From: an uncultured Clostridia bacterium
Lineage (GTDB): Bacteria > Aerophobota > Aerophobia > Aerophobales > B3-G15
Assembly: GCA_964482715.1 (NCBI GenBank)
Contig: CAYZYX010000002.1
Location: forward strand, 10,816 to 74,815
Reading direction: 5' to 3'
Length of the DNA stretch: 64,000 nucleotides
The notes beneath the pieces are model-generated. The model saw only the letters and a list, made by a program, of their open reading frames with translations, was not told where the DNA came from and did not search any database. This document shows positions 32,843 through 51,401 of this stretch, piece by piece (position 1 is the stretch's first letter; the number at the start of each line of letters is the position of its first letter). Position numbers and translations under genes: made by a program.

Positions 32843-33011
32843 CTTTTTGTCCCTCCTTTGTTGTTAAACATTTCCATTTGATAAATTTTGTACCATTATA
32901 ATGTGCAAATTTTTTGTGTCAATTTTAATAAAAAATATTATTTCCTTTCTATATGCTGCTTAAGTTAATCTGCTAATAACCTAATGGGAGAAAATTTTAT
33001 TTTGCAAAATC

Positions 33012-33040
33012 TTGACATAGATAATTTGCACATATAATAT
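33012..33040 (+). promoter_or_regulatory. Sigma-70-type promoter upstream of ferredoxin copy 1
   Basis: TTGACA at 33012..33017 and TATAAT at 33033..33038, with a 15-nt spacer. An alternative -10, ATAATA, gives a 17-nt spacer. Confidence 0.4.
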
Positions 33041-33073
33041 TAATCTTTAAGAAGCAGATCTTGAGATGCAAAG

Positions 33074-33262
33074 ATTTAAAAAGGAGGTTGTAAATGGCCA
33101 TCACTGAAGTTTGGATCGATGAGGATGCTTGCACAGGCTGTGGACTTTGTGAGGATACCTGTCCCGAGGTCTTTGAGGTAAACGATGTGGCATCGGTTAA
33201 AGAGGATGCAGATTTCAACGAATTTGAAGATGAAATCAAAGAAGCTGCAGAGGAGTGTCCAA
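33074..33262. repeat. Repeat copy A (~189 bp) covering the ferredoxin RBS and its first 168 nt
   Basis: Identical to the reverse complement of 49665..49853, except one synonymous C/T difference that I could find. Confidence 0.8.
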
Positions 33263-33291
33263 ATGAGGCCATACACTTTGAGGAAGAGTGA
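33094..33291 (+). CDS. fdx: Small single-cluster ferredoxin (Pyrococcus/Thermotoga type, CxxCxxC...CP), copy 1
   Basis: 65 aa, acidic: MAITEVWIDEDACTGCGLCEDTCPEVF...EECPNEAI. Preceded by AAGGAGG. Near-identical to the copy at 49636..49833. Confidence 0.8.
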   Translation: MAITEVWIDEDACTGCGLCEDTCPEVFEVNDVASVKEDADFNEFEDEIKEAAEECPNEAIHFEEE

Positions 33292-33324
33292 TGATAAAGA
33301 TTAATAATTTTAAGGCAGGAAAAA

Positions 33325-33582
33325 ATGTCAACCAGGCATTACCCACGAGTTATTTTATTTTCCTCGTCTTCCTGTCCATGGTGTTCACGAGCTAAAAATT
33401 ACCTTCGTCAACACGGTATTAAGGTGAAGGAAATAAGGGTGGATAAAGACCCGGATGCTGCAAGAGATGTAGTAAAAATGACCGGACAGATGAGTGTACC
33501 TGTTCTTCTGATTGGAAGAGCAAAGATAGTTGGATTTGATAAGGATAAGATAGATCGTCTCTTAGGACTGAAAAGAAAATAA
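33325..33582 (+). CDS. Glutaredoxin-like/NrdH-like small thioredoxin-fold protein
   Basis: 85 aa with a CPWC active-site motif near the N-terminus. Confidence 0.65.
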   Translation: MSTRHYPRVILFSSSSCPWCSRAKNYLRQHGIKVKEIRVDKDPDAARDVVKMTGQMSVPVLLIGRAKIVGFDKDKIDRLLGLKRK

Positions 33583-33602
33583 ACTATTACGGAAGCTAAC
33601 GA

Positions 33603-34262
33603 ATGAGACCAAGCTGGGAGGTATTTGATAAACTCTGCCAAAGATACGATGAGTGGTTTGAACATTTCCCGGGTAAAAATATTTTTGAGTTGGAAGTAAA
33701 ATGTGTGAAAGAGTCTTTTAAAGGAGTATCAAAACCATGGCTTGAGGTAGGTATTGGAACAGGTAGGTTTGCCGAGAAAATTGGTATAGATGTTGGGATA
33801 GATCCATCTGAAAAAATGTTAGAAAAAGCTGCTAAAAGAAAGATAGAAGTAATAAAAGCAAGAGCTGAGAACCTTCCTTTTCCTTCGGATTTTTTTGGTG
33901 GAGTAGCTATAATCGTAACTTTATGTTTTTTAGATGATCCTCAAACAACATTAAAGGAATGCCTTCGGGTATTAAAAAATGACGGAAGAGTTATATTGGG
34001 AATAGTCCCCAGAAACAGTAGCTGGGGAAAATTTTACTTGGAAAAAAAGAAGGAGGGACACCCTTTTTATTCGGTGGCCCATTTTTACACTTCTCAAGAG
34101 ACTATACTTTTAGCAGAAAGAGCTGGATTTACACTGGAAAGTGTTTTTTCTACCTTGTTTGAAGAGCCAAAGGAATGTGAAAATATAAAAATTTATTCAC
34201 CTTCGTCCAATCTTATAGAAAATGCGGGATTTGTCTGTATAAGATTCAAAAAAAGTAAATAA
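33603..34262 (+). CDS. Class I SAM-dependent methyltransferase
   Basis: The motif I region LEVGIGTGRFA and the overall length (219 aa) fit Methyltransf_11/25-type enzymes. Confidence 0.65.
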   Translation: MRPSWEVFDKLCQRYDEWFEHFPGKNIFELEVKCVKESFKGVSKPWLEVGIGTGRFAEKIGIDVGIDPSEKMLEKAAKRKIEVIKARAENLPFPSDFFGGVAIIVTLCFLDDPQTTLKECLRVLKNDGRVILGIVPRNSSWGKFYLEKKKEGHPFYSVAHFYTSQETILLAERAGFTLESVFSTLFEEPKECENIKIYSPSSNLIENAGFVCIRFKKSK

Positions 34263-34302
34263 GGGAAAAAACCAGGGGAGAAATGGACTTTGAAAAAATT
34301 TC

Positions 34303-34779
34303 TTACTCAGGAAGACCCTTTATGACTTCCAGCGCATGGGGGATTGCCGGTAAAATTAATTCCAGACTTTCCTCCACTGCTTTTGGACTTCCTGGCAAAT
34401 TAATCACCAGGCTTTTTCCTCTAACACCAGCAATAGCACGAGAAAGTAAGGCATGAGGAGTTTTCTCAAATCCTTTTAATCTCATTATCTCACTAAAACC
34501 GGGTAAAATTTTTTCTATAACTTCCGCCGTAGCTTCGGGTGTAACATCTCTCGGGGAAAGACCTGTTCCCCCTGTAGTTAAAACCAAATCCACCTTTAAT
34601 TTATCTATCATATCCTTTATGTTTTGGGATATAACAGTTTTTTCGTCGGGCACAATCCTGTAGTCTATTACCTGTCCCAATTTTTTCACCATTTTATGAA
34701 TGAGTAGTCCGCTTAGGTCTTCTCTCTCTTTCTTAAATGACCTATCACTTACGGTAATTATGCCTATTTTTATCATCAA
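34303..34779 (-). CDS. mogA: Molybdenum cofactor biosynthesis protein MogA/MoaB family
   Basis: 158 aa with LVLTTGGTGLSPRDVTPEA, the MoCF-biosynthesis-domain signature. Confidence 0.8.
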   Translation of the reverse strand: MMIKIGIITVSDRSFKKEREDLSGLLIHKMVKKLGQVIDYRIVPDEKTVISQNIKDMIDKLKVDLVLTTGGTGLSPRDVTPEATAEVIEKILPGFSEIMRLKGFEKTPHALLSRAIAGVRGKSLVINLPGSPKAVEESLELILPAIPHALEVIKGLPE

Positions 34780-34783
34780 AATC

Positions 34784-35230
34784 TTACTCCTCTATCAACT
34801 CTATTTTGTCTCCTACCTGAATTTTTCCCTCTCTTACCACTTCGGCAAAAATTCCCCTTCGTGGCATGAGACAATCCCCGACCTGTTTATAAATGTTGCA
34901 GTCACTGTGACATTTTTTACCAATCTGAGTTATTCTGATCACAGCCTCCTTTCCTACCTTAAGGAGATCTCCAGGGTTTAAGGAAGAAAGATCTACATCA
35001 ACTGTAAGATTTTCCGCAAAATCTCCCGGTTGCAATTTTTGTAAAGATCGATTTCTCTGTAGAAATTCTTCCACACACCTCCAGCTCAAAAGGCTAACTT
35101 GACGATGCCAGAAACCGGCATGTGCATCTCCTAAGATACCATGGTTTTTTTTAAGGAACGCTTCTTTTACAGGCTTCTTGGACACACCTTTTTCCTTGCT
35201 GATATTTATGGATATTATTTTTCCTTTCAT
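34784..35230 (-). CDS. MOSC-domain protein (Moco sulfurase C-terminal-like)
   Basis: 148 aa, a beta-barrel-type sequence with a conserved Cys (KKCHSDC). Lies inside the Moco operon. Confidence 0.55.
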   Translation of the reverse strand: MKGKIISINISKEKGVSKKPVKEAFLKKNHGILGDAHAGFWHRQVSLLSWRCVEEFLQRNRSLQKLQPGDFAENLTVDVDLSSLNPGDLLKVGKEAVIRITQIGKKCHSDCNIYKQVGDCLMPRRGIFAEVVREGKIQVGDKIELIEE

Positions 35231-35272
35231 TTTGCCTGTCCTTAAATTGATCTTAGAGCTGTGCTATTTCAA

Positions 35273-35722
35273 TTATTGCTCTTCCCTCAAATAATCCCCA
35301 CTTTTTCCTCCTCTTTTTTTAATAAGCCGCACATCAGAAAGATACATCTCTTTATTGGTTGCCTTACACATATCATAAATGGTTAATGCAGCTACCATAA
35401 CTGCGGTTAAAGCTTCCATTTCAACTCCTGTTCTGTCGGTAGCCTTCACCTGGGCTTCAATTTCAATTTTGTTTTCCTTTAACTCAAAATTTACCTTGGC
35501 TCCTGTAATCTTTACGGGATGACAGAGAGGGATAATATACGGGGTTTTCTTTACGGCCAGAATTGCTGCTATTTGAGCGCAGCTTAACACATCGCCTTTG
35601 GGGAGTTTTCCCTCTTTTATAAGCTTCAAGGTTTCAGGGGATAAAATGACCTCACCTTTAGCTACCGCTTCCCTGAAGGTGGTGGGTTTTCCAGTGATCT
35701 CAATCATACTTATTTTATTCAA
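35273..35722 (-). CDS. moaC: Cyclic pyranopterin monophosphate synthase accessory protein MoaC
   Basis: 149 aa. The segments TDRTGVEMEALTAVMVAALTIYDMCKA are conserved MoaC blocks. Confidence 0.85.
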   Translation of the reverse strand: MNKISMIEITGKPTTFREAVAKGEVILSPETLKLIKEGKLPKGDVLSCAQIAAILAVKKTPYIIPLCHPVKITGAKVNFELKENKIEIEAQVKATDRTGVEMEALTAVMVAALTIYDMCKATNKEMYLSDVRLIKKRGGKSGDYLREEQ

Positions 35723-35723
35723 C

Positions 35724-36692
35724 TTAACCTCCTATTTGAAACATAAATTTACCTGTTTTATGAAATTTTTCCATTATGGATATATTTCCCGTCCTTTTTT
35801 CTTTCTTAAAACCAAGTGCCAGATCAAAAATTTTTTTGAGGTCAGCTTCATCGCAATTTTTATCACGAAGTACATTTTTAAGATCCAGTTCATAACTGGA
35901 AAGTAAACATGGTCTTAACTTTCCATCAAAAGTAAGGCGTAAACGGTTACATCTTTCACAAAATGAATGACTGATAAAGCTTATAAATCCGATAGGATTC
36001 CCCGATTCCTTAAGCTGGTAGTAAGTGGCTGGCCCATTACCGATAAAGGAAGTTGGTTCGAGTTTACCCCATTTTTTCTCTATCGTGCTCTTTACGTGAC
36101 TGTTGGGGATGTACCATCTTGTCCCACCTATACCATTTATAGGCATATGCTCTATAAAACGGATGACCAAAGAATTTTTTTGGGCAAACTCAACAAAATC
36201 AAGTATTTCATCATCATTTATTCCCTTGAGGATCACCACGTTTATCTTAATGGGGGTTAAGTTTGCTCTTCTGGCGGCTTCTATACCTCTTAAAACCTGT
36301 GGAAGACTATCACGTCCGGTTATCCGGGCAAATTTTCTTCTTTTTAGACTGCTCAGACTAACATTTACACGAGAGATACCTGACTCTTTAAGTTTCAAAG
36401 CCAGACTTTCCAGCTTCGTTCCATTGGTGGTAATACTTACCTCTCTTATACTTTTTATCCGAACAATCATCCTTGCTAATGTAGGTAGATCTTTTCTAAG
36501 CAAAGGTTCACCACCGGTCAATCTTACCTTTGTTATCCCCGAAAATCCTGCCAGGTTTACCAGCTTTTTTATTTCCTCAAAACTTAAAAGTTCGCTTTTA
36601 TCCCGAATTTTTACTCCCTTCCTGGGACGACAGTAAATACAGTTAAAATTACACATGTCAGTTAGCGAAATTCTGAGATAATCTACATTCAA
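35724..36692 (-). CDS. moaA: GTP 3',8-cyclase MoaA (radical SAM)
   Basis: CNFNCIYCRP radical-SAM CxxxCxxC motif at the N-terminus and the C-terminal second-cluster cysteines CERCNRLRLTFDGKLRPC. 322 aa. Confidence 0.9.
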   Translation of the reverse strand: MNVDYLRISLTDMCNFNCIYCRPRKGVKIRDKSELLSFEEIKKLVNLAGFSGITKVRLTGGEPLLRKDLPTLARMIVRIKSIREVSITTNGTKLESLALKLKESGISRVNVSLSSLKRRKFARITGRDSLPQVLRGIEAARRANLTPIKINVVILKGINDDEILDFVEFAQKNSLVIRFIEHMPINGIGGTRWYIPNSHVKSTIEKKWGKLEPTSFIGNGPATYYQLKESGNPIGFISFISHSFCERCNRLRLTFDGKLRPCLLSSYELDLKNVLRDKNCDEADLKKIFDLALGFKKEKRTGNISIMEKFHKTGKFMFQIGG

Positions 36693-37900
36693 CCTAAAAC
36701 CTCCACCACAACTTCATCTCCGGCCCTCAACTTTTTCACATTTTCAGCCATCACAACTATGCCATTAGCCCATAGCATGGATTTTAATACTCCAGATTTC
36801 TGTGAGGGTGCGGGAATAGCCCAGTATTTTCCATCCTCTTCAACCAGCCTCACCCTTATAAAATTTTTTCTCCCGGAACTGTTTTTAACTTCTTCTTTCA
36901 AAATGGCCTTTATTTTGAACTTTTTCTTATACTCCTTGTGCCCCAGCATCTTAAAAATAGCTGGCTTTACCAGATTTTCAAAGTTCATCATGGAAGAGAC
37001 CGGATATCCGGGAAGTCCAAACACAAGTTTATTTCCTTTAATTCCAAAGAGGGTGGGTTTACCAGGCTTTGTGGCCACTTTCCAGAAAAGTATTTTCACT
37101 CCTGCCTCTTCCAGGACCTGTTTAACCAGGTCATATTTTCCTTCAGATACACCCCCGGATAAGAGTAAAATATCGCATGAAGAAACTGCCTTCTGTACCA
37201 CAGATAAAAGTTCTTCCGGGTCATCCCTGACAATACCTATCCTTTGAGGTTCACCTCCACTTGCTCTCACCTGAGAAAAAAGAGCAAAACTATTGCTATC
37301 ATAAATTTTACCTATCTCCAGCTTTTCACCCGGTTCTAAAACTTCATCACCTGTGGAGATGATAGCCACTCTGGGTTTTTGGGTTACCCTAACCTCTCTT
37401 CTGCCCAGAGCAGCAAGCATTCCCACTTCCTGAGGTCTTATCAGAGTTCCCCGAGAAAGAACTTTTTCTCCTTTTTTCACATCCTCACCAGCAAAACTCA
37501 CATTTTCTCCTTCTCTTATACACTTGAATATTTTTACCTTCTCCCCTTCACTATCCGTATCTTCCATCATCACTACTGCATCAGCCCCCTCGGGCATAGG
37601 CGCTCCCGTCATGATTCTAATTGCTTGACCGGGACGAACTTTAGATTCGATTCCACCTCCTGCGGCAAGCTCACCTGCAACCTTTAAAATTACAGGTTTA
37701 GTTTTTGAGGCGGAAATTGTATCTCGTGCCATTATCGCATATCCATCCATAGCTGCCCGATGAAAAGCTGGAATATCAAATTCACCCCAAATGTCCTCCG
37801 CTAAAACTCTTCCCGGGGAGGAAAGTAAATCAACTTTCTCATCAGGTAAAGTTAAAGCTTGCCGAAGAACAATTTCCAGGGCCTCTTCTAAAGGGATCAT
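36689..37900 (-). CDS. moeA: Molybdopterin molybdenumtransferase MoeA
   Basis: 403 aa with MoeA N-terminal, MoCF-biosynthesis and C-terminal domains (DIPAFHRAAMDGYA ... GGVSEG). Confidence 0.85.
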   Translation of the reverse strand: MIPLEEALEIVLRQALTLPDEKVDLLSSPGRVLAEDIWGEFDIPAFHRAAMDGYAIMARDTISASKTKPVILKVAGELAAGGGIESKVRPGQAIRIMTGAPMPEGADAVVMMEDTDSEGEKVKIFKCIREGENVSFAGEDVKKGEKVLSRGTLIRPQEVGMLAALGRREVRVTQKPRVAIISTGDEVLEPGEKLEIGKIYDSNSFALFSQVRASGGEPQRIGIVRDDPEELLSVVQKAVSSCDILLLSGGVSEGKYDLVKQVLEEAGVKILFWKVATKPGKPTLFGIKGNKLVFGLPGYPVSSMMNFENLVKPAIFKMLGHKEYKKKFKIKAILKEEVKNSSGRKNFIRVRLVEEDGKYWAIPAPSQKSGVLKSMLWANGIVVMAENVKKLRAGDEVVVEVLG

Positions 37901-38059
37901 ATTTTCCTCCTGATAAGAGATGATGAGTTTTTGGATTCCTTTTTGACTGTTTCAGGTGATTTTTCATGAAGGGTAAGCAGGTTAAGACTAATAAATAAGA
38001 TTATAGATACACAAATTAAAGGCAGGTTCCAGAGATTTGTTTTTTTTATTTTTTTCATT

Positions 38060-38100
38060 CTAAAGAAAAAGGCCAATATCGTTTGGAGAAGATATTGGCC
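38060..38100 (-). terminator. Rho-independent terminator downstream of the MarR gene
   Basis: Perfect 10-bp stem GGCCAATATC / GATATTGGCC with a 10-nt loop, followed on the minus strand by TTTTTCTTT. Confidence 0.55.
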
Positions 38101-38264
38101 TTATCGCAAAAAAGATTTCTTCTTTCCAAACGCGGGAGGCACAACCATTTCTGGTTGTACCCTACCGGCTATCTTCCATAGGCAAAGCCCTTAGGAGAGA
38201 TAGCTCGAAGAAATCAATCCAGCCACGTCAACTAAAAGCAACTATTTCAAGTATACTAAAAAAT

Positions 38265-38762
38265 TTAATGAGGGCAAGTCTCAACGGAAAACCTACTCTG
38301 ATTTTGTTTGCCAAAGATAGCCTGGAAAAGTTTTTCCATTAACTTGATAAGGTTACTCCTTTCCTCAACAGTTAGATTCTTCAATGAATTTTCCAGTATT
38401 TGTGTTCTCTCCTTTTCCAGAGTTTTAACAACCTCTTTCCCTTTTTGGGTGAGGCAAACTCTAACTACTCGCCGATCTTGTAGATCTGGTTTTCTAAGAA
38501 TAAGACCCTTTTCCACAAGCCGATCTGTTATTCTGGTTAAGGTGCTAAGATCCAGAGAGAGAACCTGACCAATATCTGACATGCAGGGGTGAGGATTTTC
38601 ATAGTAAATGTAACCGATAACTGTAACCTCAGGATGAGTAAGTGAAACAGACATTATTTTCTTTTTGCTTTCCCCGATGCACAACCTGGCTATGGCTGCA
38701 ATAAAATACATAAGTTTTACACTGGAGTCGTTTAAATCTTTGTCTGATTTATCTTTTTCCAT
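38265..38762 (-). CDS. MarR-family transcriptional regulator
   Basis: 165 aa with a winged-helix region: LSLDLSTLTRITDRLVEKGLILRKPDLQDRRVVRVCLTQKG. Confidence 0.8.
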   Translation of the reverse strand: MEKDKSDKDLNDSSVKLMYFIAAIARLCIGESKKKIMSVSLTHPEVTVIGYIYYENPHPCMSDIGQVLSLDLSTLTRITDRLVEKGLILRKPDLQDRRVVRVCLTQKGKEVVKTLEKERTQILENSLKNLTVEERSNLIKLMEKLFQAIFGKQNQSRFSVETCPH

Positions 38763-38777
38763 TTTGCTTTAAAAAAT

Positions 38778-40028
38778 TCAAAAACTTTGCTTTATCTCCA
38801 GGTAGAGAAAATCTTTATCATCCATCATACCAAATTGAGTATTTGACTTTCCCTCAAATACCATACCCCCAAAATCAAGATTAAACCCACCTCCAAGCTC
38901 ATAACTGACCTGTGAAGACAAAAGGTACTCTTGCATGGTCAAATTGTAGCTGGAAAGAATTTCAAGTTTTAGTTTCTCATGCCAGATATTATGGGTAAGA
39001 TTCACCACAAGAGAATTTTGCCATTCTTTTTGTTCACCGTAAAAAACCGAAAATTCCCTGGCCAAACTCTCTAATCCAGGATATTCATTTGGTGACTTGA
39101 AGTGGAAAACCTTTTTACCCACAAGCTGAAAAATTACATTCAGATTTTCTATCACAGGATAGCCCACTTCCAGAATATATCTTAAGTTAGGATTTTTAAT
39201 GGATAACGAGTCCCCGTTTTCATCCCGGGTTTGAAAATAGGCAACTTCACCTCTCAGATCAAGTTCTTCAAAGGTTGTAGCAAAATCAGCTCCATATATT
39301 TGAAGCCGATGGTGAACAGGGATCAAATTGATGATAGGGATTTGAGACAGATCAAACTCATAATCAGGAAAACTGTCCCAGGTATAAAGGTAGCTTAAGG
39401 AAAAATCAATTCTGCTCCCCATTCTATCAATTTTAATTCCCCAACTGCTGTTTTTAATTTGAGAGGTAGGCAACCTCGGATTTTTCAAATTTATGAAAGA
39501 GGGAAAAGAAAAATCAGGTAATTTGCTGGGGGTAAATTCCGGAATCCAAATTCCCTGAAAAATAAGAGCAGAGTCTTTAAAATAATTAACCTTTAAAGCA
39601 TTAATACTTATTCTCTGTTCTTCAAAGTCCGGTTTTATTCGAGAGTAGTCAACGGGATTGATGTTGTTGGTGGGAGTTTCTGTTCCATCAGCTCTTCCCC
39701 AGAATATGTACTGCTTTCCCAGGCGAATGTCTGTGGTAAGAGTATATAGGTCAAGGTAAGCTTCGTCAATTGCAAGATCGCCCTTTGACTCACCACCCAG
39801 ATCATTTCCGTAAAACTTAAAAGAGAAAAACCCTTTACCCACACTGTAAAGCGGAAAGTCAGATTCTAAGTTCGTCTCCAGATCAAATCTTTCCTTATCG
39901 TTTTCCGGAGAGGCGGTAAAATAATAAAAAGGTATCTTCCAGTATCCTTTGACCATAGCTGTACAGGGAATAGTGAAAATAAGGAAAATCAAGCAAGTGC
40001 CTGTGGCAAGGTATTTTCTTAATTCCAA
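38778..40028 (-). CDS. Outer-membrane beta-barrel protein (DUF1302-like) of an RND/MMPL export system
   Basis: 416 aa, signal peptide, alternating amphipathic beta-strand pattern, C-terminal ...EIKQSF ending in an aromatic residue. Third gene after the MMPL transporter. Confidence 0.45.
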   Translation of the reverse strand: MELRKYLATGTCLIFLIFTIPCTAMVKGYWKIPFYYFTASPENDKERFDLETNLESDFPLYSVGKGFFSFKFYGNDLGGESKGDLAIDEAYLDLYTLTTDIRLGKQYIFWGRADGTETPTNNINPVDYSRIKPDFEEQRISINALKVNYFKDSALIFQGIWIPEFTPSKLPDFSFPSFINLKNPRLPTSQIKNSSWGIKIDRMGSRIDFSLSYLYTWDSFPDYEFDLSQIPIINLIPVHHRLQIYGADFATTFEELDLRGEVAYFQTRDENGDSLSIKNPNLRYILEVGYPVIENLNVIFQLVGKKVFHFKSPNEYPGLESLAREFSVFYGEQKEWQNSLVVNLTHNIWHEKLKLEILSSYNLTMQEYLLSSQVSYELGGGFNLDFGGMVFEGKSNTQFGMMDDKDFLYLEIKQSF

Positions 40029-40030
40029 CT

Positions 40031-40861
40031 CTATCCTCCTCTCATCAGATATCTTGGGGTAAAGTAAAGATCTGGAATTTCTACATCCACCTTCATTTTT
40101 CTAAATATGAGTTCAGTTGAGTGGCCCGTTTGCACATTTTTCATGGTCATTTTATGGGCAATCCAGTACTTTTCCGCCAGGAGCTTGTATTCTTCCAGAG
40201 TCAGGACTTTCAGTAAATTACCCGTCTCATCGTAAAATTCTACTTTTCTAACTATAAAGTTCTCAGAATCGATCCAGGAAATCTTTTTAGAATACCCTGT
40301 CTCTTGCAGAACCTCTTCATCAGCAGGTGTAGCCTCAACTACATAGCATTTCCTTTCTTCGTATTCTTCCTCCCTCAACAGCCTGTACTTCCACTCATCA
40401 ATGTTTATTGCTTCCATATCCTTGTAGGTAAAATCAGAGCCCATAAAACTTCCCTTTTTGCCTCTGGCGGCAATTCGGCGAACTTTGTGTAATACTGGAA
40501 GATAAAGATATTGAAGGTCTGAACCCTTTTCCTGTTCCAGAGTGAGAAAACTGGTTCCGGCAACATCAGCAGGTTCAAGAAACTTCACATATCGTTTTTC
40601 CAGTCCGTTTTCGGTTTTGGAGTAAGATTGGAGTATTCTTTCTCTTACTCCACCTGTTTTGGAGATGAGTCTCATAATGAGCTTTCCCTCACTACCTTTT
40701 GGTACGGGTTGAGAGTCCATCCTTTCCATGATTTCCCTGCCAGTAAGGGCAAAACTTGTTCCGGAAAAAAGGCTTATAAGGATACCCGCCATGGCTAAGA
40801 TTAGCAGAACCTGCGTGACTTTTTTAAATTTAAATTTTTTCATCTTTTGCCTCCTGCTCAA
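40031..40861 (-). CDS. Outer-membrane lipoprotein-sorting (LolA-like, DUF1329-type) periplasmic protein
   Basis: 276 aa, with an N-terminal signal/anchor, encoded between the MMPL transporter and the OM barrel. This is a common RND-exporter accessory arrangement. Confidence 0.5.
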   Translation of the reverse strand: MSRRQKMKKFKFKKVTQVLLILAMAGILISLFSGTSFALTGREIMERMDSQPVPKGSEGKLIMRLISKTGGVRERILQSYSKTENGLEKRYVKFLEPADVAGTSFLTLEQEKGSDLQYLYLPVLHKVRRIAARGKKGSFMGSDFTYKDMEAINIDEWKYRLLREEEYEERKCYVVEATPADEEVLQETGYSKKISWIDSENFIVRKVEFYDETGNLLKVLTLEEYKLLAEKYWIAHKMTMKNVQTGHSTELIFRKMKVDVEIPDLYFTPRYLMRGG

Positions 40862-43161
40862 ATATCTTTAAATATTCTTGATCGGGTTAAGATAATGAGT
40901 CCGGGTAATACTGTCAAGGCTCCCGTTGCACTTATGAGCATAACCAGGCTCATGAGTTCTCCCATAAAATGATACCACTTTATACTTGAAAAAAGGAGAA
41001 CCAAAAAACCGGCTGCTACGGCGACAGCATTATAGAAGATAGCCTTTCCGGTAGTCCTTGTTGTGGCTATTAGTGCAGAAACACCTGGATTTTCAAGGCT
41101 TTCCGTTCTCAGTCGGGATATGAAATGAACTGCATAGTCTATACCTATTCCAACTGCAATAGCCGAAATAGCTACTGTTCCAATATTTAAAGGAATTTTA
41201 AACCACCCCATGACTCCAAAGTTAATTAAGATAGCAATACATATGGGAACAAGAGAAAAGAGGCCTGCTTTTATGGATCTGAAGATGCTGGCCGCTATGA
41301 TAAAAACAAGTACCAACGATAAGATAATACTTCTTATGAAAGTATTTACCAGCAGTTGATTTATTACGATAAAAAGAGAACCTGCTCCTGTCACATTTAC
41401 TTCTACCCCCGGGGGGAAATTTTTCTCCACGTAGGAATTAACAGCTCGAACCACTTTTTTTATCTCAGCGCTATGTCCACTTTTTAAAAAAACCATCATA
41501 TTAGCAGTCTGGAACTGGTTATCTACATAACTTTCAAAGTCCGTAGGATCACCGGAAAAGGAGTAAAGGAGGAGATACTGAGCTACCTCTTCACGAGTAT
41601 CAGGGATTCTGTAAAATTCCTCTCTATCTTCATGTAAAGCTTTATTTATTGACTTAATGAAATCATTTATGGAGCTTGTCCCTCCTACCTGGGGTAAATT
41701 TTTCAAGTGTTCTTCCAAGCCTTCCATAGCTTTCAGGATTAAAGGTTCCTTAATCTCTTCGGGATTGGGAGTTTTAACAATTACCTGAAGAGGAGTAGTC
41801 CCCACAAAATAGTGATTTAAAACATCCTCAGCAATCCGGTAAGGATTATTAGAAGGGAAAAACAAAAGTGGATTTGATTCTGTACTCGTGAGGGGGATTC
41901 CAGCTATAAAAAAGGCACAGATTATTCCAGCCACAATAAGAACAGTGATTTTTTTTCTGTAAACAAATTGGCCAAGCCTGGCAAGAATCAGGGAAAGGTA
42001 TTCCATTTTACCAGGGTTGCTTTTTTTTGAATACCTGGGGCCAGATTCAGGCAAAAGAAGAAGACAGGCAGGGATAAATATTAGGGAAAAACATAGAGCG
42101 GAAGCAATACCAAATCCAGTAAGAAGACCAAAAGTTCGAAGCCCCTCCATTTGTGATACAGCAAGAGAGATAAATCCAGCTATTGTTGTTAGACCAGCGA
42201 TTAAAACGGCATTTCCGACCCTGGTTAATGTTGCCTCTATACGGGAGTTTCTATCCTTCAAGTAGGAAACTTCATAGTATCGAGTTAATAAGTGAATTCC
42301 GTAAGCAGTTCCAACAGCCATAAGCAAAATGGGAAGAATAAAGGTTACTATAGAAAGAGGAATTTTTAACAGGCTCATTATTCCAATTGCCCACACAGTA
42401 CTTATTACGACAGTGCTAAGGGGAAGAATGACCCCCACTCCAGTTCTGAAGCTAAAGTATAAAATGATTACTATAACTCCGAGAATGATAGGAATCAAGT
42501 AGGAGAGGTCTTTTATCATCAAACCGCCCATGGCAGAATCAACAATTATTTTTCCTCCCACGTAGATTTTTTCGGGCCCCTCGTAACTTTTTGAAATTTC
42601 CTCCAGTTTTCTTGCCAGCATGGATTTGTCAGCCCCTTTTTTCACGGAGACCATTATGGCAGCAGCTTGATTATCACGGGAGACCACTCCCTCATACATT
42701 TTATTATCTTTAATTTTTCTCTTGAACTTTTCCATTTCTGTGTCAGTTTGGGGAATTTCGTCTCCCAGGATAGGAGAAATCTCAATCCCCCATTCTGTTC
42801 CCTTAATGTAGTCCACTTCTGTAGGAGAGATAACTTCATCAACTCCAGGGAGTTTTTCTATCTCTTTCGAGATAAGTCGAATTTTTCTTAGAGTTCCCGG
42901 ATTAAATATTTCTTGATTCTCTGGGACAACCACACCTATAAAAGCATATTCTCCTCTGGTCCCAAAAATTTCTTCAACCCTGTCAAGGTACTTTTTTGCG
43001 GGTATCTGAGGAATTTGTTTGGTAATATCTGTTTCCATTTCCAGATACCTGAACTGGAGTGCAAAAAATATAGTCAGGATGGTAATGATAATCACAATTG
43101 AGCGAGGATGTTTGATGATAAAACGAGATAACTTTTGCATAGCTTTATTTCTTTTTATCAA
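40858..43161 (-). CDS. RND-superfamily MMPL-type exporter (HpnN/putative lipid exporter family)
   Basis: 767 aa with two 6-TM bundles, each followed by a periplasmic domain. A sterol-sensing-domain-like TM block is present. Confidence 0.75.
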   Translation of the reverse strand: MIKRNKAMQKLSRFIIKHPRSIVIIITILTIFFALQFRYLEMETDITKQIPQIPAKKYLDRVEEIFGTRGEYAFIGVVVPENQEIFNPGTLRKIRLISKEIEKLPGVDEVISPTEVDYIKGTEWGIEISPILGDEIPQTDTEMEKFKRKIKDNKMYEGVVSRDNQAAAIMVSVKKGADKSMLARKLEEISKSYEGPEKIYVGGKIIVDSAMGGLMIKDLSYLIPIILGVIVIILYFSFRTGVGVILPLSTVVISTVWAIGIMSLLKIPLSIVTFILPILLMAVGTAYGIHLLTRYYEVSYLKDRNSRIEATLTRVGNAVLIAGLTTIAGFISLAVSQMEGLRTFGLLTGFGIASALCFSLIFIPACLLLLPESGPRYSKKSNPGKMEYLSLILARLGQFVYRKKITVLIVAGIICAFFIAGIPLTSTESNPLLFFPSNNPYRIAEDVLNHYFVGTTPLQVIVKTPNPEEIKEPLILKAMEGLEEHLKNLPQVGGTSSINDFIKSINKALHEDREEFYRIPDTREEVAQYLLLYSFSGDPTDFESYVDNQFQTANMMVFLKSGHSAEIKKVVRAVNSYVEKNFPPGVEVNVTGAGSLFIVINQLLVNTFIRSIILSLVLVFIIAASIFRSIKAGLFSLVPICIAILINFGVMGWFKIPLNIGTVAISAIAVGIGIDYAVHFISRLRTESLENPGVSALIATTRTTGKAIFYNAVAVAAGFLVLLFSSIKWYHFMGELMSLVMLISATGALTVLPGLIILTRSRIFKDI

Positions 43162-43253
43162 ATTTTGTATTTTACAAATAGTTTAGAAAAAAAATTACAT
43201 CTGACAATCTCACCTCTTCTATCTTTTCTAAAATCCACACAGGACAGGCGAAA

Positions 43254-44420
43254 TTACAGAGTATTTTCTTCCATCTGAGAGCGTAAAGCATCAAGAAGCT
43301 GTAGGTATCCCTGTAAGTCTTTTTCCTCAGCCGAAGCTCTTAACTTTTCCAGAGCCCTTTCCTGAATCTGTCTAATTCGTTCCCTGCTTACACCATACTT
43401 TTTCCCGATTTCTCTCAAAGAATAAGTCCTTTTATCTTCAAGGCCAAATCTCAATTTCAAAATATCAAGTTCACGTTCATCTTTAATTACCTTTACCAGA
43501 AGCTCCCTTACCTCCTTTTTTAACATCTCGAGTGTCAACTCATAAACAGGAGAAGGAATAGCAGTATCGGCAACGAAGTCAATAACTGATGTATCACCCT
43601 CTTCTCCCACCGGGCTGTCAAAAGAAACCGAATCCTGACTCAACCTCAAAATCTGTTTTGTTCTTTCTATTGAAACATCAAGACTTCCCGCAATTTCTTC
43701 AGGGGTAGGTTCTCTTTGATATTCTTGTTCTAATTTGCGAGAAGCGTAGGTTAATTTTTTTAATAGATGTGCAATGTGAACCGGAAGACGTATGGTTCTT
43801 GCCTGATCGGTTATAGCGCGAGCTAATGCCTGTTTGATCCACCAGCTGGCGTACGTGCTAAAACGGTTACCTATATCGGGATCAAACTTATCAACAGCGT
43901 GTGAGAGTCCTATATTGCCTTCCTGAATCAAGTCCGGGAGAGAGACTCCTCTATTAGCATATTTCTTGGCAAAGTTTACCACCAATCTGAGGTTTGCTTT
44001 CATCATTTCCCTTTTGTACTGTTCGTATATGTCTTTCACTCTAAACACTCGATTAATGAGATTCTCCATATCCTGTTCCATATCCTTCTCTATAGATCTA
44101 CAAATTTCGAGAATAGCTTCTTTGTTTTTAGAGAGAAAATCTATGAGTTCTCTGATTCGGTCCATATTATCTTTGAGAGTGGATATATCTTCTTTCCGGT
44201 AGCCTTTATCTGTAAAGAAATTCAAAAGTTCGTCTTTTTTGCTTACCTTTTTCAGTATATCCTCCAAAAGTTGAAATAGCTGCTCTCTTCTTTTCTTTAT
44301 TTTTCGAGTAAGTTCTACTTCCTGTTCTTTGGAAAGTAAAGGAGTCTTACCTATTTCTTGAAAATAACTGTCCAGGAGAAAATTGTTATGATCCCTGTCT
44401 TTTGTTCCTATTTCGTTCAC
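43254..44420 (-). CDS. RNA polymerase sigma-70 family factor (group 1/2, RpoD/RpoS-like)
   Basis: Region 1.2 ([18 protein letters not shown]), region 2 ([13 protein letters not shown] ... [10 protein letters not shown]) and region 4.2 ([20 protein letters not shown]). 388 aa. Apparent GTG start. Confidence 0.85.
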
Positions 44421-44739
44421 TTTATTACCCCACTTTTTGTATTTTTAATCCTTCCATCCAAAAGATTTTTGTAATAAAATCTCTGGAAGGAAGGGATCAG
44501 GCGGGAAATCTTCGTAAAATATATTATAGTCAAATTTTCCCCTTCGTCAACCCCCCGCACCAAGTTGTCAATTAAATTTTAAAGTTTAAATCACTATAAA
44601 ATAAGTGAAATTTTAAAATCTAATTGACACTCAATATGTCTAAACTTGACACCAATTTTTTCTCGTTATAGGTTAATAGAAGATCTGAGGTTCAAAAATA
44701 ATAAGTAGTGTTTTTGATCAATTAGAAAGAGGTTGGAAG

Positions 44740-45480
44740 ATGCGTTTCAAGAACAAGGTGGTTCTGATAACCGGGGCGGCTCAAGGAATAGGGAAAGCTA
44801 CCGCTCTTGCTTTTGCTAAAGAAGGAGCAAATCTGGTTCTGGTAGACGTGAGAGAGCTTTCGGGCGTCAAGCAAACCGTTGAAAGAGAAAAAAGAAAGGT
44901 TCTTGCCTTGCAGGTTGATGTTTCTACTTCAGGCATGGTGGAAGAAATGGTTAAAGCCACGGTAGATGAGTTTGGCAGACTTGACATTCTGGTTAATAAT
45001 GCCGGAGTTGTCTCTCGAGGTATAATTGAAAAGATAACCGATGAGGAACTGGATAGAGTTTTGGACATTAATTTCAAAGGAGTTTTTTATTGTTGTAGGG
45101 CAGTTATCCCAATTATGAAAAAACAACACTATGGCAAGATAGTAAATGTGTCCTCAATTACTGCAAAGAGAGGTGACAATACAACGGCTCCCTGTTACGG
45201 AGCATCCAAAGGGGCAATTTTAACGCTAACCAGATCACTGGCCAGACAACTTGGACCGTTTGGTATTAATGTTAATGCAGTCGCTCCACACGCTATTGAC
45301 ACTCCTATGATGGAATACTGGGATGAAACAAAAAGAAAAGCTGTTATTGAGTCTTTACCCGTTCGTAGAATGGGAAAGCCAGAGGATGTGGCCTTTGCAA
45401 TACTTTTTTTGTGTTCAGATGAAGCCAGCTTTATTACTGGTGAGACTCTTAATATTAATGGGGGATACTTGATGGATTAA
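44740..45480 (+). CDS. Short-chain dehydrogenase/reductase (FabG-like)
   Basis: TGAAQGIGKA Rossmann motif and catalytic YGASKGA (YxxxK). 246 aa. Confidence 0.85.
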   Translation: MRFKNKVVLITGAAQGIGKATALAFAKEGANLVLVDVRELSGVKQTVEREKRKVLALQVDVSTSGMVEEMVKATVDEFGRLDILVNNAGVVSRGIIEKITDEELDRVLDINFKGVFYCCRAVIPIMKKQHYGKIVNVSSITAKRGDNTTAPCYGASKGAILTLTRSLARQLGPFGINVNAVAPHAIDTPMMEYWDETKRKAVIESLPVRRMGKPEDVAFAILFLCSDEASFITGETLNINGGYLMD

Positions 45481-45496
45481 TGGGAAAAATGTTCAA

Positions 45497-46237
45497 TTAA
45501 CCTTTCCAGAAAAATAGTCTCAGGTTTGTGTTAGTTTGAACAGAGCTCGAACCTTCCTCTTTTTCCTCTTTTTCCTTTTCCTCTGGAGCAAGGGGTCTTT
45601 TTTTAACCTTTAATCCTCCTTTACTCAGGAGTTCATCTGCAAGTCCGAATTCTATTGCTTCCTGAGCGGTAAACCATACTTCTGATTGGAGCATCTTTCT
45701 TATTTCTTCCTTTGTTTTCCCCGTATTTTCGGCCAGTAAGGAGTACATTTTATCTTCTATTTTGGACAGAGCCCCACTTAACTGACGAAAATCTTCAAAA
45801 CTCGAACTCCAGTTATCCAGGATTATAGTTGGTTGGTGGAGCATGACCATGGTGTAGTCTCCGATGAACCTCTCATCTCCACTGCTTAATATAAGAGCAG
45901 CTCCTGAGATAGCTTCCCCCAGGGCAACAGTTACTACCGAACGGCGCATGTTTTTTATCACGTCACATATGGCCATCACTGACATAAGTGATCCCCCGGG
46001 AGAAGAGATTCTTATTCCCACAGGAGACGTTTCAGGTTCCGAGTCAAGGTTCATTAAAGCAGTTATAGTTTCATCGGCCTTAGCTTCGTCTATTTCACCT
46101 GAAATACTGATCCAGTTATCTCTGTCAATTTCAGGCATATCTGCCCAACCTGAAGTTCGGATAAAAAGTAAAAAAATGAAAAAAACAACAATCCCAATTT
46201 TATTCATTTTTGGTCTTTGCTCCTTTTTATTAATCAA
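45497..46237 (-). CDS. Secreted ClpP-family serine protease-like protein
   Basis: Signal peptide, ClpP-fold blocks (GGSLMSVMAICD ... GEAISGAA ... MLHQP) and a Lys/Glu-rich C-terminal tail. 246 aa. Confidence 0.6.
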   Translation of the reverse strand: MINKKEQRPKMNKIGIVVFFIFLLFIRTSGWADMPEIDRDNWISISGEIDEAKADETITALMNLDSEPETSPVGIRISSPGGSLMSVMAICDVIKNMRRSVVTVALGEAISGAALILSSGDERFIGDYTMVMLHQPTIILDNWSSSFEDFRQLSGALSKIEDKMYSLLAENTGKTKEEIRKMLQSEVWFTAQEAIEFGLADELLSKGGLKVKKRPLAPEEKEKEEKEEGSSSVQTNTNLRLFFWKG

Positions 46238-46260
46238 CTTTTTAAACCAATTCCGTAATA

Positions 46261-46689
46261 TCAGAAGGTTAACATATCTTCGATTATCTCTTCTATATTA
46301 TAAACCATACATTTACTGGGCATCCAGAGGGAGATTCCTCTTAAGGGGGCAAGCACGTCTCTTTCCACATGGACAGAAAATTTTCCTTTGAGTATTTTAG
46401 CGTACTTTTCTCCGGCAAGAGCTTGAGCATAAGCCATGATTTTTCTTCTTCTTGCTGGAGTGACCTTATCTTTTCCCGGCAAAATGACCACAACCACCTC
46501 CTCTAATCGGTAGTCTTGGGGCTCAATTCTCTGGATACGAGCTATACCCACGTATCTTGTCTTCTCTGTACTTGTTCTGCATAGTTTCCCATAGGGAACA
46601 GGGTTGTTTTCGATTTTATCTTCCGACTCGAAACTCACACTGAAAAACTCTTCAATATACCTCATTTTTACTACCCTTTTTGCCTGCAT
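46261..46689 (-). CDS. Hypothetical protein
   Basis: 142-aa ORF with a good coding look. No motif I can assign. Confidence 0.35.
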   Translation of the reverse strand: MQAKRVVKMRYIEEFFSVSFESEDKIENNPVPYGKLCRTSTEKTRYVGIARIQRIEPQDYRLEEVVVVILPGKDKVTPARRRKIMAYAQALAGEKYAKILKGKFSVHVERDVLAPLRGISLWMPSKCMVYNIEEIIEDMLTF

Positions 46690-46829
46690 CTCTTTATTAA
46701 GATTATGTTCAATTTATCTCAACTGTCAAATGAAATTTTCTCTCCCAGATGAAAGTTTTTTGCCTATATTTTGACATAACAGCTATTATCTCTATAATTA
46801 ATTAACAAAAAATTGAAAAGGAGTAAAAG

Positions 46830-47708
46830 GTGAGATTACCTTCCTGGCTTACCAAAAAGATGCCACCTTCTTACATTTTAGAAGAGATGGAAAGTCTCAT
46901 TAAGAGTTTTTCCCTTCATACTGTTTGCGAGGAAGCTCATTGCCCCAATATAGGGGATTGTTTTTCAAAAAAAACTGCTGCTTTTATGATACTGGGTAAC
47001 TTTTGTACCCGGAATTGCCGCTTTTGCGCCGTCAAAAAGGGTAAACCTCTTCCTCCTGACCCTCACGAACCAGAAAATGTAGCAAGAGTCGTTAAAAGAC
47101 TGGAATTAGATTATGTTGTTATAACTTCTCCTACCCGTGATGACCTTCCTGATGGTGGTGCAGAACACTTTGCTAAGGTAATTGAGGCTATCAAGAGGTC
47201 ATGTGAACAAAGGACATTGATAGAGGTTTTAATACCTGATTTTGGTGGTTCATTTGGTGCCTTAAAAAAAGTTTTGGCGGTAAGACCCTTTGTAGTAAAC
47301 CATAACCTGGAAACCGTGCCTCGACTTTATCGCGAGGTGAGACCCCTTGCCCAATATGAAAGGTCGTTGAAAGTTTTAGAGGCTGTCAAAAAATATAGTA
47401 CAGGAATATACACCAAGTCGGGAATAATGGTAGGACTGGGAGAAAGTCAGGAAGAAGTAATTCAGGTTATGGAAGACCTCAGAAATATTAACTGTGATAT
47501 TTTAACCATTGGTCAGTACTTGAGACCTTCTCCCAGTCATCTGGAAGTTAAAGAGTTTATTAAGCCATCAATTTTTAGCCACTATCGCCAGGTAGCCTAT
47601 TCACTGGGTTTTATTTATGTTGCTGCTGGTCCCTTTGTTCGAAGCTCTTACATGGCCAGAGATTGGCTAAAGGCATTGAATAGAAGCAGTTTTAGCCACT
47701 TTCAATAA
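46830..47708 (+). CDS. lipA: Lipoyl synthase LipA (radical SAM)
   Basis: Auxiliary-cluster motif CEEAHCPNIGDC and radical-SAM motif CTRNCRFC. 292 aa. Confidence 0.9.
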   Translation: MRLPSWLTKKMPPSYILEEMESLIKSFSLHTVCEEAHCPNIGDCFSKKTAAFMILGNFCTRNCRFCAVKKGKPLPPDPHEPENVARVVKRLELDYVVITSPTRDDLPDGGAEHFAKVIEAIKRSCEQRTLIEVLIPDFGGSFGALKKVLAVRPFVVNHNLETVPRLYREVRPLAQYERSLKVLEAVKKYSTGIYTKSGIMVGLGESQEEVIQVMEDLRNINCDILTIGQYLRPSPSHLEVKEFIKPSIFSHYRQVAYSLGFIYVAAGPFVRSSYMARDWLKALNRSSFSHFQ

Positions 47709-49620
47709 GCTCTATCACCGTATTGACCAGAGTATCCACATCCAGACCTTCCATTTTGAAAAGATCTTCAGGAACACCAGAACCGGCGTATCTTCTTATT
47801 CCTAATTTGCGAAAATGTGGAGAGAGGCGATTTTCCATGAAGAAGTTAGCCACTATACTTCCAAGTCCCGTCTTAACATTGTGGTCTTCATAGGTTACCA
47901 CGATTCCTGTTTGTGCAGCTTTTTTCAAAGCATCCTCATCCAGATCACTCCAGCAGGATAGATTTAACAGCCTAACCCTGTAGCCTTTTTGTTTTAAAAT
48001 TTCCCAGGCCTGAATAGCCCTGTGGAGCAGGGTCCCAGCGGAAATAATGGTTGCTTGCTCTCCATCTCTTATCAGATCAGCCTTGCCATATACGAATCGG
48101 TAATCTTCTCCAAAAAGAGGTTTGCCATCCTCAGAGAGTATTACAGGTAAATTTGATCTTCCTACTCCTACGAGAAAGTTCCCGGGCTGACACGTGATAT
48201 AGCGTATTACCCTGTCGGTTTGATTGGCATCAGCAGGAATTATGATTTTAAATCCATAAAGATTGTTTATAACTCCTGCATAATCGATACACTGGTGAGT
48301 CTTTCCGTCCTGTCCCACATCTATACCATTATGAGTGCAGACCAATTTTAAGTTGGTTTTATTGAGATCATTCAGTCGATGTTGATTGTAAGTTTCATCT
48401 ACTCCAAAGACACCAAAATCAGAAAAGAAAACCACGACTCCCTGAGTAGAAAGAGCACCAGCTATAGTGGCAGTGGTGTGTTCCTGAATTCCGGCTTCAA
48501 AGAACCATTCGGGGCAATCTTTGGCGAATCCGTCAGTTTTAACCGAACCCAAAAGGTCACAATCGAAAACGGCAATGGGGGTTGAGCCTTCATTTTGTCG
48601 GTTAGCTTTTCCGAGATCCTGTAATGCTTTCCCAAAAGCATTTCTGTTAGCTACCTTCTTGTCACTTTGATAGGTTATAAAGTTACCAGGGACAAGTTTA
48701 ATATCCGGTGAGGGTAGAGGTAGAGGTGGAGGTGGAGACAAAGTTTTCCTTAAAGATAGGTACCTATCAAGATCATCTTCCAAACCGAGTTCTTTAAGTG
48801 CCTCCCTACATTCTTCCACAGAAAGAGCTTTACCGTGGTACTCGTATTTGTTTTCCATAAAGCTTACACCCTTTCCCATAACTGTGTGAGCCAGAATCAC
48901 AACAGGACAGTCTCTGGTTTTAACAGCCTCTCTTAAAGCCTGATAAATTTCCTGGTGATCGTGCCCATTAATTTCCAGAACTTTCCAGCCATCGGCAAGG
49001 TAGTTTTCTTTTATGTTCTGTGGCATAATCTCGTTTAATGGACCTGACAGCTGAAGAAGATTATAATCAATGATCACAGTTAAATCTGTGAGGTTATATT
49101 TTTTTGCAAAACGTCTGGCTTCTCCTACCTGACCCTTGGACTGTTCTCCATCACTCATAACCACAAAAGTGTGAAAGTCTTTCCCCAGTAATCTGGCAGC
49201 AAGCGCAAAGCCACATCCTGCTGACAATCCCTGACCAAGATTTCCGGTACTCCACTCAACTCCAGGAACCTCTCTTTCTATATGACCTTCAAACATACTT
49301 CCTGCCTTACGGAAATTAGCGATAGCCTCGTCCAAATTGAAAAAACCGAGACGTCCCAGAGTGGCATAAACCCCGGGAGAGGTGTGACCATGGCTTACTA
49401 CAATTCTGTCTCGGTCCGGATTATGAGGATCATCTGGCCATACCTTTACGCAACTCCAGAGGGTAAGATAAATATCTATGGAAGACATGGATCCCCCGGG
49501 GTGACCGGAGCCGGCAACTGTGGTCATTTTCAGAATGTCACCCCGTGCTAAATTTGATAACTCTTTTAAACGAACAAGTTTGTCCTCGCCTAACTTTTCT
49601 GTTTCAAATCCCCATCGCAT
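47692..49620 (-). CDS. tkt: Transketolase (full length, fused N- and C-terminal halves)
   Basis: 642 aa. TPP-binding GSGHPGGS, HNPDRDRIVVSHGH and a C-terminal pyrimidine-binding domain. Its 3' end overlaps lipA convergently by 17 nt. Confidence 0.8.
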   Translation of the reverse strand: MRWGFETEKLGEDKLVRLKELSNLARGDILKMTTVAGSGHPGGSMSSIDIYLTLWSCVKVWPDDPHNPDRDRIVVSHGHTSPGVYATLGRLGFFNLDEAIANFRKAGSMFEGHIEREVPGVEWSTGNLGQGLSAGCGFALAARLLGKDFHTFVVMSDGEQSKGQVGEARRFAKKYNLTDLTVIIDYNLLQLSGPLNEIMPQNIKENYLADGWKVLEINGHDHQEIYQALREAVKTRDCPVVILAHTVMGKGVSFMENKYEYHGKALSVEECREALKELGLEDDLDRYLSLRKTLSPPPPLPLPSPDIKLVPGNFITYQSDKKVANRNAFGKALQDLGKANRQNEGSTPIAVFDCDLLGSVKTDGFAKDCPEWFFEAGIQEHTTATIAGALSTQGVVVFFSDFGVFGVDETYNQHRLNDLNKTNLKLVCTHNGIDVGQDGKTHQCIDYAGVINNLYGFKIIIPADANQTDRVIRYITCQPGNFLVGVGRSNLPVILSEDGKPLFGEDYRFVYGKADLIRDGEQATIISAGTLLHRAIQAWEILKQKGYRVRLLNLSCWSDLDEDALKKAAQTGIVVTYEDHNVKTGLGSIVANFFMENRLSPHFRKLGIRRYAGSGVPEDLFKMEGLDVDTLVNTVIELIESG

Positions 49621-49635
49621 TGTACTTATCCCCCT

Positions 49636-49833
49636 CTACTCTTCTTCATACTGGATTGCCTCAGTTGGACACTCCTCTGCAGCTTCTTTAATTTCATCTT
49701 CAAATTCGTTGAAATCTGCATCCTCTTTAACCGATGCCACATCGTTTACCTCAAAGACCTCGGGACAGGTATCCTCACAAAGTCCACAGCCTGTGCAAGC
49801 ATCCTCATCGATCCAAACTTCAGTGATGGCCAT
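49636..49833 (-). CDS. fdx: Small single-cluster ferredoxin, copy 2
   Basis: 65 aa. Identical to copy 1 over the first 56 residues and differing only in the last 9 (…EECPTEAIQYEEE). Confidence 0.8.
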   Translation of the reverse strand: MAITEVWIDEDACTGCGLCEDTCPEVFEVNDVASVKEDADFNEFEDEIKEAAEECPTEAIQYEEE

Positions 49834-49853
49834 TTACAACCTCCTTTTTAAAT
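49665..49853. repeat. Repeat copy B (inverted orientation relative to copy A)
   Basis: Same sequence as 33074..33262 on the opposite strand. The antisense Ser-rich shadow ORFs in the track (32997..33272 and 49520..49891) share a 62-aa identical stretch because of it. Confidence 0.8.
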
Positions 49854-49914
49854 TTTTAAAAAACTTTTTGGCTCATAAAGTAGCAAATTAATTTAAAATG
49901 TCAATTGTGTCAAA

Positions 49915-49942
49915 TTTGACAGAATCTTTTAATCTAATATAA
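49915..49942 (+). promoter_or_regulatory. Sigma-70-type promoter for the B12-radical SAM gene, with its -35 inside a 14-bp perfect palindrome
   Basis: TTGACA (49915..49920), a 16-nt spacer and TATAAT (49937..49942). The palindrome TGTCAAATTTGACA spans 49907..49920. Confidence 0.5.
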
Positions 49943-51381: not shown

Positions 51382-51401
51382 AACAGATGAAATTCTTAGT
51401 G

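Follow-up and report, generated by a model that had tools for sequence, protein, structure and literature searches.

Concerted evolution of an inverted pair of ferredoxin genes bracketing a 16.4-kb segment in an uncultured bacterial lineage, probably Aerophobetes

The inverted repeat and its gene neighborhood

The 64-kb window, i.e., the whole stretch of DNA that was analyzed here, carries two ferredoxin genes in opposite orientations, fdxA and fdxB, at the two ends of a 16.4-kb segment (Table 1). With both loci aligned in register, window positions 33074-33262 (+) match the reverse complement of 49665-49853 at 188 of 189 nucleotides, a tract that begins 20 nt before the ATG and stops after codon 56. 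The sole difference, a C at 33237 where fdxB has a T, is synonymous, codon 48 being read as Ile either way (ATC/ATT). Beyond about -20/-24, the upstream flanks of the two genes are unrelated. At the other edge, the final 29 nt, stop codon included, hold 8 differences, of which 6 fall within the last 26 to 27 coding nucleotides and amount to three synonymous and three nonsynonymous changes in the last nine codons. Hence, 1/189 differences are set against 8/29 (Fisher p=3.2e-7; 1.2e-5 on coding positions only). The original prediction had reported the inverted recurrence at 49665..49853 of the ribosome binding site (RBS) plus the first 168 nt of fdxA, with a single synonymous difference, 3' ends reading NEAIHFEEE versus TEAIQYEEE, and a different upstream region for each copy, and all of this was borne out. 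Since no second repeat of at least 40 nt was found anywhere in the 64-kb window, chance is excluded as the origin of the ferredoxin repeat. Moreover, an imperfect direct repeat stands at the edges of the fdxA cassette and may be a candidate junction microhomology.

Table 1. Features of the two ferredoxin loci and of the segment between them, in window coordinates.
Feature	Position	Strand	Remarks
fdxA upstream region, shared with divergent RACo gene	32843..33073	+	promoter-like site 33012-33040 (TTGACA-17-TAATAT)
Imperfect direct repeat around fdxA cassette	left 33065-33079, right 33290-33304	+	left GATGCAAAGATTTAA, right GATGATAAAGATTAA; read from sequence
Repeat arm A	33074..33262	+	RBS and codons 1-56 of fdxA; GGAGG at 33083-33087
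fdxA	33094..33291	+	predicted 65-aa mono-[4Fe-4S] ferredoxin; putative lineage-specific duplicate in grx leader
Segment between arms	33263..49664	.	16.4 kb; would invert upon crossover
fdxA diverged 3' end	33263..33291	+	NEAIHFEEE and stop; outside homogenized tract; 8/29 differences from fdxB
grx (33325-33582) and class-I methyltransferase gene (33603-34262)	33325..34262	+	downstream of fdxA; Pfam, NCBIfam
Transketolase gene (tkt)	47692..49620	-	15 nt 3' of fdxB; NCBIfam NF004556, 1004 bits versus cutoff 575
fdxB diverged 3' end	49636..49664	-	TEAIQYEEE and stop; 27/27 identical to fdxB orthologue of strain L014
fdxB	49636..49833	-	65-aa ferredoxin; heads fdxB-tkt; ancestral copy as judged by synteny and C-terminus
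Repeat arm B	49665..49853	-	RBS and codons 1-56 of fdxB
fdxB upstream region, shared with divergent B12-radical-SAM gene	49854..49989	-	unrelated to fdxA upstream region

Both open reading frames score above the Pfam cutoffs for Fer4_13 (47.8 and 48.6 bits, cutoff 24.5) and Fer4_15 (45.5 and 43.8 bits, cutoff 22.4). The ligand cysteines, as read from the sequence, are C13, C16, C19, and C55 (C-x2-C-x2-C ... C-P), all within the identical tract. Full-length relatives in the PDB (E=4.5e-10 to 2e-4) are the mono-cluster ferredoxins of Thermotoga maritima (1vjw/1rof), Pyrococcus furiosus (2z8q/1siz), and Desulfovibrio africanus (Fd I, 1fxr), which share with fdxA and fdxB a length of 60 to 66 aa, an acidic character, and the C-x2-C-x2-C...CP motif, but the cluster type of the two proteins described here is predicted from sequence. 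The two proteins differ only at residues 57, 61, and 62, all past the last ligand (N57/H61/F62 versus T57/Q61/Y62). For both the ferredoxin and the glutaredoxin, the nearest named homologues belong to Candidatus Aerophobetes; a scan of a genome collection did not return the window's own species, and its best matches were ferredoxins with 83 to 86% identity.

The ferredoxin genes stand between an ACS/CODH Wood-Ljungdahl cluster in the left flank and MTHFR and NiFe-hydrogenase genes in the right flank. Their divergent neighbors are themselves preceded by 12/12 matches to the sigma-70 consensus promoter with 16-nt spacers, at 32922-32895 (-) for RACo and at 49916-49943 (+) for the B12 radical-SAM gene. 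Two paralogues of the RACo-type corrinoid activase are encoded in the window, one of 635 aa with a linker domain within the ACS/CODH cluster (17698-19605, -) and one of 525 aa that adjoins fdxA (31265-32842, -).

Besides grx, the methyltransferase gene, and tkt, the segment holds mog, a MOSC gene, moaC, moaA, moeA, marR, a DUF1302 gene, a LolA-like gene, an MMPL gene, an rpoD-like sigma factor gene, an SDR gene, a ClpP-like gene, a hypothetical gene, and lipA. Its content had been correctly named beforehand as glutaredoxin, Moco genes, MarR, an RND triad, sigma-70, lipA, and tkt, to which we add the SDR, ClpP-like, and hypothetical genes and a riboswitch. The latter, of the Moco/tungsten-cofactor family (RF01055; window 38103-38222, -; 82.8 bits versus a gathering score of 36), precedes the moeA-moaA-moaC-MOSC-mog operon.

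Ancestry of the two copies and concerted evolution

Two lines of evidence bear on which copy is older. In L120 (GCA_964422215.1, CAYRAK010000001.1), a related species with 70 to 84% amino acid identity in the neighboring genes, the order is fdx-tkt-lipA-hyp-clpP-SDR, and in the more distant L019 (MAG CBFDTW01), it is B12rSAM|fdx-lipA-hyp-clpP. The C-terminus TEAIQYEEE is also kept across genera (L019, L120, P0002, P0003, and P0009). Thus, from synteny and from this conserved C-terminus, fdxB, heading fdxB-tkt, is taken to be the ancestral copy.

The surroundings of fdxB have themselves been rearranged. In L019 (8512-12348), lipA-hyp-clpP directly follow fdxB with no transketolase gene, so that tkt was gained or lost just downstream of fdxB. 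In L120 (1-16483, compared with window 49990-58532), B12rSAM-GT4-MTHFR-DUF5981-HoxH-HoxY is inverted relative to fdxB-tkt, such that HoxY rather than B12rSAM abuts fdxB, which marks the upstream boundary of fdxB as the breakpoint of an evolutionary rearrangement. The other end of the inverted L120 segment has no second ferredoxin copy. The MBL-fold gene is absent from L120, and LysE takes the place of the sigma-70 gene after the SDR gene.

At the grx locus, the closest relative found, L132 (80 to 83% nucleotide identity to the window), has the RACo(-)|grx(+) arrangement of the window, with promoter-like TTGACA/TATAAT boxes that align with those of the window and stand directly before grx. Its RACo-grx intergenic region contains no fdx and is about 223 nt shorter than that of the window. 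Nor was any fdx found upstream of grx in three further lineages (L129-131, L133-136), two of which have grx adjoining RACo, and the search for an fdxA orthologue elsewhere found none. The simplest reading of these sequences is that fdxA is a derived, lineage-specific RBS-plus-CDS cassette that entered the space separating the RACo-side promoter from grx. Less parsimoniously, L132 may once have had fdxA and lost it through a deletion running from one flanking direct repeat to the other. The fdxA 3' end matches every other paralogue type at 19 to 22 of 27 positions, none of them being closer, so fdxA may also derive from another, unsampled ferredoxin whose 5' part was later converted. The RACo-grx adjacency itself was seen again in three other lineages.

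A third ferredoxin paralogue type, ending in SEAIHYEEE or SEAIHCEEE, was observed in samples that also contain the window organism (L125, 9608-12433; L018, 1042-2502), where the gene order is hyp-fdx-(B12 radical SAM)-uracil-DNA-glycosylase. The L018 gene (SEAIHCEEE) was considered as an fdxA orthologue and rejected, as it belongs to this third type (P0004).

Comparison with L014, a strain about 8% diverged from the window, reveals that the two parts of the genes have different histories. Over the 5' 168 nt, window fdxA and fdxB agree at 167 positions, whereas window fdxB and its L014 orthologue agree at 159, the differences being synonymous. Over the 3' 27 nt, the pattern is reversed, with 21/27 matches between the window paralogues and 27/27 between window fdxB and L014. 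Such a reversal, with paralogues the closer pair over the 5' part and orthologues the closer pair at the 3' end, is the signature of concerted evolution. Synonymous sites of the tract vary freely across lineages, 9/168 having changed in L014 and 30/168 in L120.

Further evidence came from contigs of hydrothermal and marine sediment metagenomes, in which the copies were retrieved by exact-protein look-up. Near-identical strains vary at gene positions 84 (G/A) and 144 (C/T), in the grx-linked and tkt-linked copies alike, on short-read metagenome contigs that may mix strains, and all four 84/144 haplotypes are present in the grx-linked copy. Because a single 141-mer reaches from each of the two sites to copy-specific sequence, their linkage is supported by reads and was not made by the assembler. 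Polymorphisms common to both copies require several independent exchanges in the recent history of the species. The fdxA-type 3' end is always grx-linked in the population contigs.

Altogether, concerted evolution, mosaic identity, a lineage-specific insertion, and shared polymorphism are observed at this locus, and they argue for a duplication followed by recurrent gene conversion between fdxA and fdxB, a reading that we hold with a probability of about 0.8. The identity had been attributed beforehand to gene conversion or a recent duplication, and both appear to have acted in sequence: fdxA would be a lineage-specific duplicate whose first 189 nt were then kept identical by recurrent conversion.

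We propose the following model. fdxB would have been copied as an ~220-nt RBS-plus-CDS cassette into the leader of the glutaredoxin operon beside the RACo gene, giving rise to fdxA, in the orientation opposite to fdxB, 16.4 kb away, and under an unrelated promoter. Homologous recombination would then repeatedly overwrite one copy with the other by nonreciprocal gene conversion, presumably RecA-dependent, and this would hold the RBS and codons 1 to 56 (189 nt, with all cluster-binding cysteines) essentially identical. Because the homology stops at about -20/-24, conversion cannot spread further upstream. The last nine codons would have moved out of its reach as mismatches piled up at the edge of the homology, an erosion that may have been aided by selection on the fdxA C-terminus. 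In this scheme, we infer the RecA dependence, the B-to-A direction of the original copying, and the edge erosion of the 3' end; recA and the mismatch-repair genes lie outside the window. The three amino acid changes of the fdxA C-terminus fall where fdxB orthologues of different genera are invariant, which suggests either relaxed constraint or specialization of fdxA.

The age of the duplication is loosely bounded by the 3' end, where the divergence between the copies (22 to 28%) is near that between the window and L132 (17 to 20%), against 99.5% identity in the 5' 189 nt; with a diverged 3' end of only 27 to 29 nt, this dating is imprecise.

Orientation of the intervening segment in metagenome assemblies

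The same 189-nt homology also lends itself to reciprocal crossover. Such an event would turn the 16.4-kb segment around and place the RACo-side promoter before fdx-tkt and the B12-rSAM-side promoter before fdx-grx-methyltransferase. The original prediction had proposed such a RecA-dependent inversion swapping the promoters of the two copies; its geometry is right, the promoters being exchanged by a crossover, but its occurrence found no support on long assemblies, where the window orientation alone was seen. These are a 35.3-kb contig (ERZ27248139) and two scaffolds of 76.5 kb (3300033150) and 19.9 kb (3300033156), with no long contig in the opposite orientation.

Hybrid junctions were found on only three contigs, of 560 to 756 nt. 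In L015 (ERZ27248172, 756 nt), RACo-side upstream sequence (140/140 nt) is joined to an fdxB-type 3' end and then to 200 nt of tkt, and in L016 (ERZ27227320, 560 nt), the same upstream sequence (140/140 nt) is joined to an fdxB-type 3' end and then to the fdxB-tkt spacer. L008 (ERZ27248120) has the B-type base at -21 before an fdxA 3' end and grx. Searching the JGI metagenome contigs for a 43-nt core pattern gave one contig, already known, and no additional junctions.

These hybrids are what would be expected if the segment were a segregating inversion polymorphism, which would act alongside gene conversion and not in its place, and in the tuf genes of Salmonella, close to half of the conversions recovered by selection at one site were accompanied by inversion of the interval (PMC5485169). 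Nevertheless, we regard such a polymorphism as unlikely. All assemblies of 20 to 76 kb (the one contig and the two scaffolds) have the orientation of the window, and the three hybrids, all below 800 nt, may be assembly chimeras: the 191 nt that separate their copy-specific flanks exceed both k=141 and a 150-nt read, so that a low-coverage de Bruijn path through the repeat can create them. In addition, the reciprocal junction of L008 comes down to a single base, and 14 of the 19 genes of the block would, once inverted, run against the prevailing gene orientation of the window. The GC3 skew of block versus flank genes gave no usable orientation signal.

The sample that yielded L016 also contains a contig (L006, ERZ27227320 k141_986772) that is either chimeric or a real rearrangement, which further weakens the case for inversion. 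In its positions 1-160, the middle of a guaA-like frame (...DPEKKRKVIGKTFVEVF) meets the fdx leader at GTTTTTT, followed by fdxA-grx, and the first ~60 nt of its fdx carry variants otherwise found only in the diverged strain L014. It was rejected as the reciprocal junction because its distal upstream sequence is a guaA-like open reading frame fragment.

A bolder idea, which we consider doubtful, is that the fdx copies form a natural promoter-swap switch independent of any recombinase, with both orientations segregating in hydrothermal-sediment populations and with L015, L016, and L008 as its footprints. If so, each flip would change the promoter of fdx-tkt and that of fdx-grx-methyltransferase, and the genes carried along would include that for the rpoD-like sigma factor, the Moco operon together with the riboswitch, the MMPL transporter gene, and tkt.

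Other explanations, significance, and known systems

A very recent duplication alone, with no gene conversion and with rapid later divergence of the 3' ends, would fit the lineage-specific occurrence of fdxA. We judge it very unlikely, since 8 changes in 29 nt and 1 in 189 nt are incompatible with a single age (p=3e-7), three of the six coding differences are synonymous, the paralogues are closer to each other than fdxB orthologues are between strains, and polymorphisms are common to both copies.

Still less credence is due to an assembly or binning artifact, whether a collapsed or duplicated repeat or a chimeric contig. The repeat does disturb assemblies: many contigs terminate within it, and JGI scaffolds are damaged inside the fdx copies by a 99-nt deletion (L098, 2869-2967), an N-run (L106, about 2730-2740), and an 81-nt deletion (L108, 2722-2844), damage that accounts for truncated "ferredoxins" of 32 and 40 aa in protein databases. 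In sample ERZ27248458, the locus is split into three contigs ending inside the ferredoxin genes, of which k141_34087 (16,736 nt) is the repeat-bounded segment with ferredoxin genes at both ends. Against such an artifact, more than 10 independent metagenome assemblies yielded both copies intact, each in its own context and bordered on either side by flanks unique to it, so that the repeat is not a product of the window's own assembly, and the concern raised beforehand about a collapsed repeat did not hold. Moreover, the 35.3-kb contig, assembled with MEGAHIT, contains both copies, which differ there at positions 84 and 144 and thus have no common exact stretch longer than k.

Hardly credible, finally, are a programmed site-specific switch of the inverton or shufflon type, despite inverted repeats that bracket a segment with promoters outside it, and an identity maintained by selection acting directly on an RNA element: the repeat consists of 189 coding nucleotides rather than a short recombinase site, no recombinase, invertase, or integrase gene was found among the annotated genes in the block or beside it, Rfam and tRNA scans found no RNA family and no tRNA at either copy, and synonymous sites of the tract are free to vary between lineages. 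Terminal inverted repeats of an IS or MITE were likewise rejected, as the window holds two copies only, each an intact ferredoxin gene, with no transposase gene accompanying the repeat.

Duplication followed by recurrent gene conversion is a process well known already, and the locus reveals no new mechanism. The fdx pair represents a small, clean case in which a second operon would have gained a copied gene cassette at its head, thereafter kept identical by conversion, and in which the process is visible directly in environmental populations of an uncultured lineage, probably Aerophobetes. In practical terms, the 189-nt repeat breaks or corrupts short-read assemblies, and hence, for any MAG of the species, the direction in which the 16-kb block lies is to be taken as unverified unless reads span the repeat. 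As to physiology, we can offer a hypothesis: the same ferredoxin core would be expressed from two promoters beside Wood-Ljungdahl and hydrogenase genes, the copies differing in C-terminal residues alone. Their proximity to these genes makes fdxA and fdxB putative electron carriers for the nearby CODH/ACS and hydrogenase, as suggested in the original prediction.

Among known systems, invertons (fimS, hin, and the Bacteroides invertons) resemble the fdx locus in having inverted repeats around a segment whose flip alters the pairing of promoters and genes. They differ in that their repeats are about 10 to 40 bp, recombined by a dedicated recombinase around a small invertible promoter segment, whereas the fdx repeats are 189-nt gene copies around a 16.4-kb segment, with promoters outside and no recombinase gene nearby. 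The long coding repeats and this lack of a recombinase gene set the fdx repeat apart from invertons.

The closest known case is that of tufA and tufB of Salmonella enterica and Escherichia coli, inverted paralogues that coevolve by RecA-dependent conversion (Abdulkarim & Hughes 1996, Hughes 2000, summarized in PMC5485169). As in the tuf system, the fdx genes are inverse paralogues on one chromosome, at the heads of or inside different operons, that would be kept near-identical by conversion through a homology that can also invert the interval. The two systems differ in scale, with about 1.2 kb of homology and an interval of hundreds of kilobases for tuf versus 189 nt and 16 kb for fdx, and in completeness, the fdx genes being homogenized in part only, with a 3' end that escaped. 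Unlike the tuf pair, moreover, the fdx duplicate appears young and species specific, and its case is built from sequence data. Nevertheless, the fdx pair displays the three sequence hallmarks of tuf-type coevolution, namely, paralogues that exceed orthologues in similarity, a sharp-edged tract, and, on short-read contigs, polymorphism shared between the copies.
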